From a virus (Duplodnaviria > Caudoviricetes), in the IMG/VR virus record IMGVR_UViG_3300028588_000001, positions 15,800 through 79,799 of that record: a DNA stretch of 64,000 nucleotides; one strand, 5' to 3'. This document shows positions 17,005 to 19,270 of this stretch, in pieces (the stretch's first letter is position 1; each line of letters begins with the position of its first letter). Below the pieces are notes generated by a model, which was not told where the DNA came from, ran no database searches, and saw nothing but the letters and a program-made list of their open reading frames with translations. The position numbers and the translations under genes were made by a program.

Positions 17005-17832
17005 TTAGGCGGCTGCCCAGGTTGCATCGTCCTTGATGGCCTGCGCGATCACGACCGTGCGGACCTTGATCAGATTCGTGCTGTTGGTCCTGACGCGGTG
17101 GGCGCGCAACTCGTCGCACTTCTGGGAAACGATGGCAAGGCGGCTGCGCAACCAGTTCGCATCGGCCGTGATCTGGGCGTCGGGCTGCTGGGCGCGCAGG
17201 GCCAGGATGCGGGCGATCTGTTCCGGGTCCTTCTGCACGCGGCCGAGGATGTGGAAGCTGTGGTGTTTCAGGGTGGCGCACTCGGCGACCGACATCGCGG
17301 CCGCGTTGCTCGGGATGCCCACGGTGAAGTCGCGGGTTTCGAGGATGACGGCGATGGTGTCGATCAGGTCGGCGGCCGCCAGCGGTCCAGTCTGAATCGG
17401 CACGATGACCTTGACGCCCATGGCGATCAGCTCGCGGACCTCGTTCTCGTACTTGCACAGGCGCTCGATCGATGCCCACTGGTCGCCAACCTTGTCCGGC
17501 GCGACCACGTACAGGCTCGCCGGCGTGATGCCGAAGTCGAGGGTGGATTCGGCGATCCGCTTGTAGGTGGCCAGCACTGCCGGGAAATCCGGCTCGATCT
17601 GGGTTTTCAGTTCCGAGAAGGCGCCGCTGTCGACAAACACGGCGCCGCCGCTCGCGAGATAGCGCGGGAGCGTGATCCCCTTTTGCAACACCATCAACTC
17701 GCCGGCGACGACGCCGACCGGAACGCCGGCCTCGATCGCGCCATGCAGGTCAGGCGAGCGGGACATCCCAGAGCGAAAAGCCAGATCCAGAGCGTGCGTT
17801 GCGGTGGAGTCGTTTTGCAAGGTTGCGGTCAT
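17005..17832 (-). CDS. TGT-fold, DpdA-like putative 7-deazaguanine transglycosylase
   Basis: Ordered motifs VFVDSGAFS, VAPDKVGD, HILG and TADANW, as in the TGT/DpdA barrel. No C-terminal Zn site. Confidence 0.7.
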   Translation of the reverse strand: MTATLQNDSTATHALDLAFRSGMSRSPDLHGAIEAGVPVGVVAGELMVLQKGITLPRYLASGGAVFVDSGAFSELKTQIEPDFPAVLATYKRIAESTLDFGITPASLYVVAPDKVGDQWASIERLCKYENEVRELIAMGVKVIVPIQTGPLAAADLIDTIAVILETRDFTVGIPSNAAAMSVAECATLKHHSFHILGRVQKDPEQIARILALRAQQPDAQITADANWLRSRLAIVSQKCDELRAHRVRTNSTNLIKVRTVVIAQAIKDDATWAAA

Positions 17833-17919: not shown

Positions 17920-17940
17920 ATACTTGAATTATTCAAGTAT
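17920..17940. promoter_or_regulatory. 21-bp palindromic operator candidate
   Basis: ATACTTGAAT-T-ATTCAAGTAT, with a partial copy GTGAATAATTCAAG at 16972-16985. Confidence 0.55.
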
Positions 17941-18140
17941 CGGAAGGGCGAATTGAGCCGTTTGGTAAGCAGGTAAGCAGAGTTTTGCGAACCATGCGAA
18001 CCGGCTGAAACCCGCATGGATAGTGGCTTTCAGAGGTGTGCAAAATTGCTTGCGCACAATACCGCTGGGAGAACGTGCACACTTACCCCTAAAATTCAAA
18101 CCAATTCGATAGATCTAAAAAGTGGGTCTAGCGAAACGAG

Positions 18141-18217
18141 AGGGGAGTCGCCAAGTTGGTCAAGGCACCGGATTTTGATTCCGGCATTCGTAGGTTCGAT
18201 CCCTACTTCCCCCGCCA
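18141..18217 (+). tRNA. tRNA-Gln(UUG)
   Basis: Cloverleaf: acceptor AGGGGAG/TTCCCCC, anticodon arm CCGGA-TT-TTG-AT-TCCGG, T arm GTAGG-TTCGATC-CCTAC, encoded CCA. Confidence 0.97.
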
Positions 18218-18458
18218 GAACGTCGCGCCACTTCCCAGATAGGGCTGGGCGCAGAGCGAAAGGAAGGCCGGCCCGTGTGGGTCGGCCAGTTCCGAGGCTG
18301 GAATCAGCCCCGAACAAGAGAGCCGGCCGGGCGCCGTTTGTCTTGTTGGTCGCGCACTGGATGCGGGTTAGCTCCGCATTGGTAATGAGCGGCATGAGTA
18401 TCCCAATTGGTTGAGAAAGCACACGGCTTACAGTGAGCGGTGGGCGGCCAACAGACAA

Positions 18459-18512
18459 CACTCCCTGACGAGCCCGTGAGATCCGGGCGAAACGCCGTGA
18501 GGCGTAGGAGTG
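18459..18512 (+). ncRNA. Type I hammerhead ribozyme
   Basis: Stem I CACTCC/GGAGTG, core CUGACGA, stem II GCCCG/CGGGC, GAAA, stem III CGCC-GUGA-GGCG, cleavage triplet GUA (cut after 18506). Confidence 0.9.
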
Positions 18513-18782
18513 ACCGCAACGAGCACTTTCCCCGGGCACAGCGGTTATACCGGGGCAGCCATACGCAAGACATAGGACGCCACCTCTGTGCGCGAGATTT
18601 GATAGGCCGTATGGGCAATGAGGTTGACACTCTGGAAAGACAGGGGCCGTGATGTTGTATCGACTGCCCGCGCCCGGACGGTCCCCTGCAGGGGATAGTG
18701 AGTCTGACGGGGCTCGCGAAAAGCTCGGTAGGACATCGCCAGTTTTCAGCCGCCTTTCTGTAAAAAAGTCGGGCCACATTCC

Positions 18783-18808
18783 AAGCCTCGCCTCGTGCGG
18801 GGCTTTTT
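18783..18808 (+). terminator. Intrinsic terminator
   Basis: AAGCCTCGC-ctcgt-GCGGGGCTTTTT. Confidence 0.8.
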
Positions 18809-18826
18809 CATTTCTAGGACCGCACC

Positions 18827-19270
18827 ATGAACAAAGACCAGAACGACATCGTGATCAGCCGTAAGAACCTGCCGACCGGGCTGGGCCTGGGCGCGCTGAC
18901 TGCCTACTTCCTGCTGTTGACCCACCTCGGCGCGCCGACCTGGGCGTTCTGGATCTTCTACGTGTTCGCCGCCGTGATCGTCCTGGCCGGCATTGTCCGC
19001 CTGTTCCGCACCCGCGAGGTCGACCTGCTGGCGATCGCCCATGCGCGCCCCGCGCCGATCCTCCCGACTGCGCCGGCGCGGCGCGATACGTTCACGCTCA
19101 AGGGCGACGAGATCGTGATCGAGCGCCTGTGCAACGACGTTCTGCGCGTGAGTATTCGTGACGCGAACGGAAATCAGCTGTACTGCTTCAAAGATTATTC
19201 GATCCCGCCGGGCTCGTCGCTGCATCTCCATGATGTGCGTGTCGAAACCGACGTAAGGATCACGTACTGA
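18827..19270 (+). CDS. Membrane protein (two N-terminal TM helices plus soluble C-domain)
   Basis: Hydrophobic segments GLGLGALTAYFLLL and WAFWIFYVFAAVIVLAGIV. AGGA RBS. Confidence 0.7.
   Translation: MNKDQNDIVISRKNLPTGLGLGALTAYFLLLTHLGAPTWAFWIFYVFAAVIVLAGIVRLFRTREVDLLAIAHARPAPILPTAPARRDTFTLKGDEIVIERLCNDVLRVSIRDANGNQLYCFKDYSIPPGSSLHLHDVRVETDVRITY

Follow-up and report, generated by a model that had tools for sequence, protein, structure and literature searches.

Thousands of hammerhead ribozymes have been found in phages and bacteria, and the biological purpose of these self-cleaving RNAs is still open (PMC3088659, PMC6765202). Those of phages are well known, and the role proposed for them is transcript processing (PMC3088659, PMC6765202); in vitro, phage and prophage examples have been seen to cleave within transcripts of about 2 kb (PMC3088659), and for hammerheads of bacteria cleavage in vivo has been demonstrated (PMC8782182). 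Most phage hammerheads sit inside multi-gene messages, where the effect of a single cut is hard to isolate. Here we analyse a locus in an uncultured phage at which one ribozyme per genome is embedded in a non-coding unit, a setting that provides a simple test of the idea that a functional RNA can owe its 5′ end to a hammerhead. The identity of the element as a hammerhead is confirmed. We hold with moderate confidence that it makes the fixed 5′ end of a conserved RNA block lying directly downstream, a reading built on the motif, its family membership, covariation, the conservation of the whole cassette and its non-coding setting.

The window, by which we mean the whole 64,000-nt stretch of DNA that was analysed, corresponds to bases 15800–79799 of the IMG/VR virus record IMGVR_UViG_3300028588_000001, which is 79.8 kb long and carries direct terminal repeats. 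Genes left of 17832 are oriented leftward and those from 18827 onward rightward, the latter including the late genes for the small terminase TerS (21448), the large terminase TerL (22055), the portal (23885) and the major head protein (27823). The unit between them comprises a presumed promoter region, a tRNA gene, a spacer, the hammerhead, the conserved block and a terminator (Table 1). The same unit is carried by one other viral contig, an 80,082-bp record (L007/L059, hereafter G001). The layout agrees with the first-pass annotation of this DNA, which had placed the hammerhead at the head of the late region, as the packaging and head genes to its right bear out, some 240 nt beyond the tRNA (the gap is 241 nt) and ahead of a terminator at 18783–18808, where a stem and T run are indeed found. 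On the assumption that the 5′ product begins after the tRNA 3′ end and the 3′ product stops at the terminator, the two would measure 289 and about 306 nt, matching the roughly 290–300 nt expected for both.

Table 1 Features of the tRNA–hammerhead unit and its borders, in window coordinates
Feature	Position	Strand	Description	Basis
Conserved upstream control region, presumed promoter	18036–18140	+	−10-like TAAAAT at 18090–18095, no clear −35	
tRNA-Gln (anticodon UUG), encoded CCA	18141–18217	+	Also in G001	Rfam tRNA 55.2 bits, ARAGORN
Non-coding spacer	18218–18458	+	Large indels relative to G001, conserved islands kept	
Distal stem I extension, 5′ strand GCGG	18444–18447	+	Pairs with 18514–17	Minimum-energy fold
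Type I hammerhead ribozyme	18459–18512	+	Scissile bond A18506/G18507 (predicted)	Sequence, fold, family model
Conserved RNA block	18513–18643	+	Leading part of the predicted 3′ product; helix a, hairpin b and helix c predicted	
Segment missing from G001, ~92 nt	18644–18735	+	Insertion here or deletion there	
Pre-terminator hairpin	18750–18772	+	Kept in G001 with changed pairs	Alignment by eye
Intrinsic terminator	18783–18812	+	9-bp G+C-rich stem (18783–18805) and T run; identical in G001	
First late-block protein gene, 147 aa	18827–19270	+	Hydrophobic N-terminal part, no family	

In a direct read of the + strand, stem I is formed by CACTCC (18459–64) and GGAGTG (18507–12), and the core segment C3–A9 is CTGACGA (18465–71). 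Stem II pairs GCCCG (18472–76) with CGGGC (18484–88) and is closed by loop II, TGAGATC (18477–83); stem III pairs CGCC (18493–96) with GGCG (18501–04) and is closed by a GNRA loop, GTGA (18497–500). G12, A13, A14 and A15.1 are the GAAA at 18489–92, U16.1 is position 18505, and the cleavage-site nucleotide 17 is A18506, which satisfies the requirement for a base other than G. Loops cap stems II and III and stem I is open, with a strand at either end, which is the topology of type I. Every core position of a type I hammerhead is therefore present, as first noted, the direct read and the fold agreeing, and all the coordinates originally assigned to it are correct, including the predicted cut after A18506. 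Both the minimum-energy and the centroid fold of 18440–18520 form the hammerhead three-way junction together with a distal four-pair helix (18444–47/18514–17), which an 11-nt internal loop (18448–58) separates from stem I; the distal pairing in G001 is CGGCC with GGCCG, in a slightly shifted register. In hammerheads, fast cleavage at cellular Mg2+ concentrations comes from a tertiary contact of loop II with stem I. The loop II consensus UGARAUY is common to many family members with differing stems, and a search by eye found no base-pairing partner for this loop.

Viral contigs were scanned with a pattern of the core and stem II only, which 48 contigs matched, and free extension from the junction recovered stems I and III, of quite different sequence, in 52 of the 62 pattern matches. 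A covariance model (R1) was built from 24 other phage hammerheads, with the window phage and its one relative left out. It scores the window site at 59.8 bits (E ~1e-14, filters off), and the next best match on the two window strands (128 kb) reaches 12 bits. Run over 53 sources, R1 returned 159 hammerheads, 104 of them distinct. In the family alignment 96% of cells are paired, compared with 32–40% when the partners are slid; the alignment is fitted to the model, which biases it towards such a result, and the independent free-extension parse (52/62) agrees with it. Compensatory double changes occur in 14 of the 16 pairs (413 cells, 104 distinct members), and none of 500 shuffles reached the observed covariation. 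Across the 104 distinct sequences, C3–A6, G8, A9, G12–A14 and the pairs G10.1–C11.1 (G–C in 104/104 rows) and A15.1–U16.1 (A–U in 103/103) are invariant, the commonest base at N7 is C, and position 17 is C in 91, A in 10, U in 2 and G in none. Covariation in homologues, one of the points on which the first-pass annotation had let its reading stand or fall, is present: stem III differs between the window phage, G001 and a further variant described below with its pairing kept, and the wider family covaries strongly in stems I–III. As part of the overall explanation proposed here, we consider 18459–18512 to be probably a functional type I hammerhead and a member of a large family in uncultured phages.

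The comparison with Rfam hammerhead models that had been recommended as a check did not recover the element: no hammerhead reached a gathering score, RF00163 (cut-off 34 bits) gave nothing at E ≤ 10, and the best match within the hammerhead clan was Hammerhead_3, of the wrong permutation, at 17.1 bits. The tRNA alone reached an Rfam gathering score in the unit. Because the Rfam models also miss every family hammerhead in seven other loci, their silence at the window site indicates a gap in model coverage, and routine annotation with Rfam 15 would overlook such phage hammerheads.

Of 111 distinct hammerhead contexts in the family, 72 start at the stop codon of the upstream ORF, and in 89 a Shine–Dalgarno sequence and start codon lie no more than 100 nt away (median 28). 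The window hammerhead has neither an abutting stop codon nor a Shine–Dalgarno sequence and start codon nearby. As most family members cut between protein genes, a role in making RNA ends is not the family norm. In those 72 contexts the end of the stop codon and the first nucleotide of stem I lie no more than a base or two apart, most often at offsets of +1, 0 and −1, so that the conserved A before stem I is often the last base of that codon. Some phage contigs bear dense same-strand arrays of type I hammerheads, none of which Rfam detects: at least 16 on one contig (IMGVR_UViG_3300036780_000230; L025 1852–5510 and L034 501–3541), 11-plus within 7.6 kb at about one per small gene (L030 5819–13466), and others at L017 5204–11949, L006 5677–10568 and L008 2776–7845. 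The examples described in PMC3088659 are pairs and triplets. On two unrelated contigs a family hammerhead lies 40–60 nt upstream of same-strand tRNA genes, tRNA-Asn and tRNA-Glu in one (L038 3054–3351) and tRNA-Ser in the other (L046 7512–7682), and the ribozyme would there cut just ahead of the tRNA precursor.

The window phage and G001 each have exactly one hammerhead, in the homologous place. A third variant is found on a 151-nt metagenomic contig (run X2), and near-identical copies occur in run X8 (soil, another study). The runs compared, all in the form of contigs, show no end at 18506/18507, and X10, which may be RNA, does not extend over the hammerhead. Stem III reads CGCC-GUGA-GGCG in the window, CGC-GAAA-GCG in G001 and CGC-GCAA-GCG in the X2 variant, all three versions being paired and each having a GNRA loop. 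The hammerhead core is 100% retained in G001, amid flanks that diverge with large indels. DNA identity between the window and G001 is 66–79% in genes and 88% over 18460–18643, which contains the hammerhead and the block and is the best-conserved segment of the 31 kb compared.

Copies further afield were sought in several ways. The locus has no blastn homologue among phages and plasmids, E. coli genomes hold nothing matching 18640–18830, and two metagenome pattern scans for the locus were empty, as were neighbour-protein searches with the 147-aa and 275-aa proteins. A 30-mer derived from the block matched L007 alone among viral contigs, and a scan of genome contigs yielded four metagenome-assembled-genome loci that have family hammerheads without this locus. 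In 80 TerS-related phage loci, hammerhead, block, spacer and promoter are absent except in G001; at 30–55% protein identity, these phages serve as distant controls rather than closely matched ones. Window 18687–18822, a stretch of 136 nt that takes in the hairpin, the terminator and part of the ~92-nt segment missing from G001, recurs letter for letter in small runs from three studies of a coded ‘organism B’, where it sits in a 151-nt contig whose flanks differ from those in the window.

The span 18036–18252, which runs from the control region into the start of the spacer, shows 82% identity to G001. A consensus promoter scan found none for the unit, so the promoter status of 18036–18140 is presumed. 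The divergent control region upstream of the tRNA contains two elements conserved in G001: a perfect palindrome, ACTTGAATTATTCAAGT (17922–17938), of which G001 has two copies, and an inverted repeat around TGCGCA (18036–18057). Both are likely operators. Divergent from the tRNA unit is a gene for a 275-aa protein (17005–17832, − strand) with no Pfam or PHROGs match; when the two genomes are compared as DNA, G001 has no counterpart at the corresponding place.

The spacer matches only G001 in nhmmer (E 7e-6), has a fold z-score of −2.35 and retains three islands, namely 18223–18252, a helix (18313–19/18341–47) and a hairpin (18361–18379) in which an A–U pair has become C–G in G001. A 15-bp helix considered between 18338–53 and 18444–58 was rejected, being lost in G001, where the conserved UGUCUUGUUG pairs locally with CAACAAGA (by eye). 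A long-range helix, 18258–63/18753–58, shows two compensatory and two broken pairs relative to G001. The longer spacer of G001 contains a 53-codon and a 26-codon ORF (L007 958–1119, − strand), both missing from the window, and the TAA of the 26-codon ORF abuts stem I; they may have arisen by chance, or the window phage may have lost a small gene here. The segment 18644–18735 matches nothing outside the window genome in nhmmer. A coding reading of the unit was also rejected: ORFs at 18096–18779 (− strand, 227 aa) and 18440–18652 (+ strand, 70 aa) match no family, lack a codon-position bias in GC and are interrupted by indels in G001. As the indels are not multiples of three, a reading frame across the hammerhead and the block is ruled out.

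Three helices are predicted in and around the block: helix a (18507–17/18541–51), hairpin b (18530–35/18550–55) and helix c (18559–65/18608–14). The block matches G001 with an nhmmer E of 1e-25 and nothing else, and neither nhmmer, the 30-mer nor the metagenome pattern scans gave a homologue outside these phages; across 18218–18826 the Rfam 15 covariance models returned weak terminator look-alikes only (E 0.05–10). Helix a is the alifold consensus of the 3′ product (three sequences), and its pair 18513/18545 shows a double change from A–U to G–C in G001 and the X2 variant, which, being common to the two, may represent a single event. In hairpin b, the pair 18533/18552 is C–G, G–C and U–G across the three variants. 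Helix a and hairpin b are mutually exclusive and both have support, and the structure of the block as a whole draws on three or four sequence variants and two covarying pairs. The first 11 bases of the 3′ product (18507–17) can pair either upstream, in the active ribozyme, or with 18541–51. In a longer context, the minimum-energy fold of the window prefers helix a over stem I and that of G001 prefers the hammerhead together with hairpin b; on this modelling, helix a could hinder cleavage rather than follow the cut. Antisense targets of the block of 12 nt or more were not found in the window, which offers only 11-mers at chance level.

In the explanation that we favour, transcription would proceed rightward through the promoter region, the tRNA-Gln, the ~240-nt spacer, the hammerhead, the block and the terminator. 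Stems I–III would form and, judging from the full consensus and the activity of related hammerheads, the RNA would cleave itself between A18506 and G18507. The tRNA-bearing 5′ piece would end in a 2′,3′-cyclic phosphate, and the 3′ piece would start at G18507 with a 5′-hydroxyl. The freed bases 18507–17 would re-pair with 18541–51 to form helix a, as one covarying pair suggests, thereby sealing the new 5′ end, releasing the 5′ piece and rendering the cut irreversible. Given a cut followed by such end-sealing, the proposed job of the ribozyme is therefore to define the 5′ end of the block RNA: a fixed, protected end on an RNA that would extend to the terminator, separate from the tRNA precursor. 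A block RNA starting at the cut would explain why conservation peaks just 3′ of it, where the block surpasses the genes of the window phage in sequence conservation. Transcription, cleavage in vivo, the strand swap and the block as a functional product are thus predicted steps of this scheme. A bolder version, in which the hammerhead and the 130-nt block would form one device that cuts, swaps strands and yields a 5′-OH, end-sealed RNA controlling entry into the late operon (acting, for instance, on the terminator 140–270 nt downstream or on the polymerase), seems unlikely to us; if true, it would supply the defined biological job that phage hammerheads have lacked since 2011.

The late genes could instead be the beneficiary, as the first-pass annotation had also suggested. 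Were the terminator read through, the cut would strip the tRNA and spacer from the packaging and head message, and the resulting 5′-hydroxyl on a base-paired leader would be a poor substrate for RNase E, whose entry here depends on a 5′-monophosphate. Ribozyme-made 5′-OH ends have reportedly been used in E. coli to show protection from 5′-end-dependent decay. Consistent with this, the unit directly precedes the late genes, a scan of the stretch from the terminator to 18827 showed no further promoter-like site, and family members usually lie a median of 28 nt before a ribosome-binding site and start codon. The cut here, however, is 320 nt from the start codon rather than about 28, and a strong conserved terminator between it and the first gene makes read-through a requirement, yet no antiterminator gene was recognised (PHROGs, seven ORFs at 5–8.5 kb). 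A mainly messenger-directed function would also leave the stronger-than-gene conservation of the block unexplained, and we judge it improbable. The same conservation bears on service to the tRNA, in which the cut would give the tRNA-Gln precursor a fixed cyclic-phosphate end and uncouple its supply from what lies downstream. The tRNA and the hammerhead do co-occur in both phages, and three other family loci (L038, L046 and L027) have a same-strand tRNA near the hammerhead, but conservation peaks 3′ of the cut and not between the tRNA and the cut. The cut lies 289 nt beyond the tRNA 3′ end, against 5 nt or less for the theta ribozymes beside tRNAs (PMC10879173), and RNase P and 3′ trimming can act without it, so this purpose is very unlikely.

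The pairing alternatives of the block admit a regulated switch, in which 18541–51 would compete with stem I for 18507–17 and the fraction cut would be set by folding kinetics or by a factor that binds the block. Stem I and helix a are indeed mutually exclusive and both conserved, and the longer-context folds differ, helix a being favoured for the window sequence and the hammerhead for that of G001. Yet the energies are close and the fold z-scores unremarkable, comparison with Rfam shows no known ligand- or protein-binding motif in the block, and re-pairing after cleavage accounts more simply for the same pairs; we regard a switch as distinctly unlikely. There is scarcely any probability that the element arose by chance or is a former hammerhead that has decayed into inactivity. 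The Rfam models do score it below threshold, but they miss the family anyway, an independent model finds it at E ~1e-14, the core is fully retained in G001 amid diverging flanks, and stem III has been remodelled with its pairing kept.

Like the HDV-like theta ribozymes (PMC10879173), the window element is a small ribozyme, predicted to cleave itself, that is associated with a phage tRNA gene, here for Gln. Theta ribozymes, however, belong to another class and cut within about 5 nt of the tRNA, compared with 289 nt downstream of it here, and the window tRNA, with its ordinary UUG anticodon, is no suppressor. The large GOLLD and ROOL RNAs resemble the locus in being structured non-coding stretches beside phage tRNAs; the unit, however, matches no such family in Rfam, whether at the gathering cut-off or at E ≤ 10, and only parts of its ~590 nt are kept in G001, between indels of 24–92 nt. 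In phage lambda, late transcription starts at PR′ and, on stopping at the tR′ terminator, gives a short leader transcript upstream of the late genes. The window unit would likewise give a short non-coding transcript ending at a strong terminator before a late operon, but the lambda leader contains no ribozyme or tRNA, and no Q-like gene or qut site was identified in the window phage. With the phage type I hammerheads (Perreault et al. 2011, PMC3088659; CL00010, RF00163) the element shares the core, the three-helix junction with open stem I, G10.1–C11.1, A15.1–U16.1, H17 and carriage by a phage, and the processing of long phage transcripts that the literature proposes for them would apply equally here. 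Described phage hammerheads flank protein genes and are often clustered, whereas the window copy is single, with non-coding RNA on both sides. Phage hammerheads as such are known; judged from its sequence, what is unusual about this one is its setting, a single ribozyme between non-coding flanks with a conserved RNA starting at its cut.
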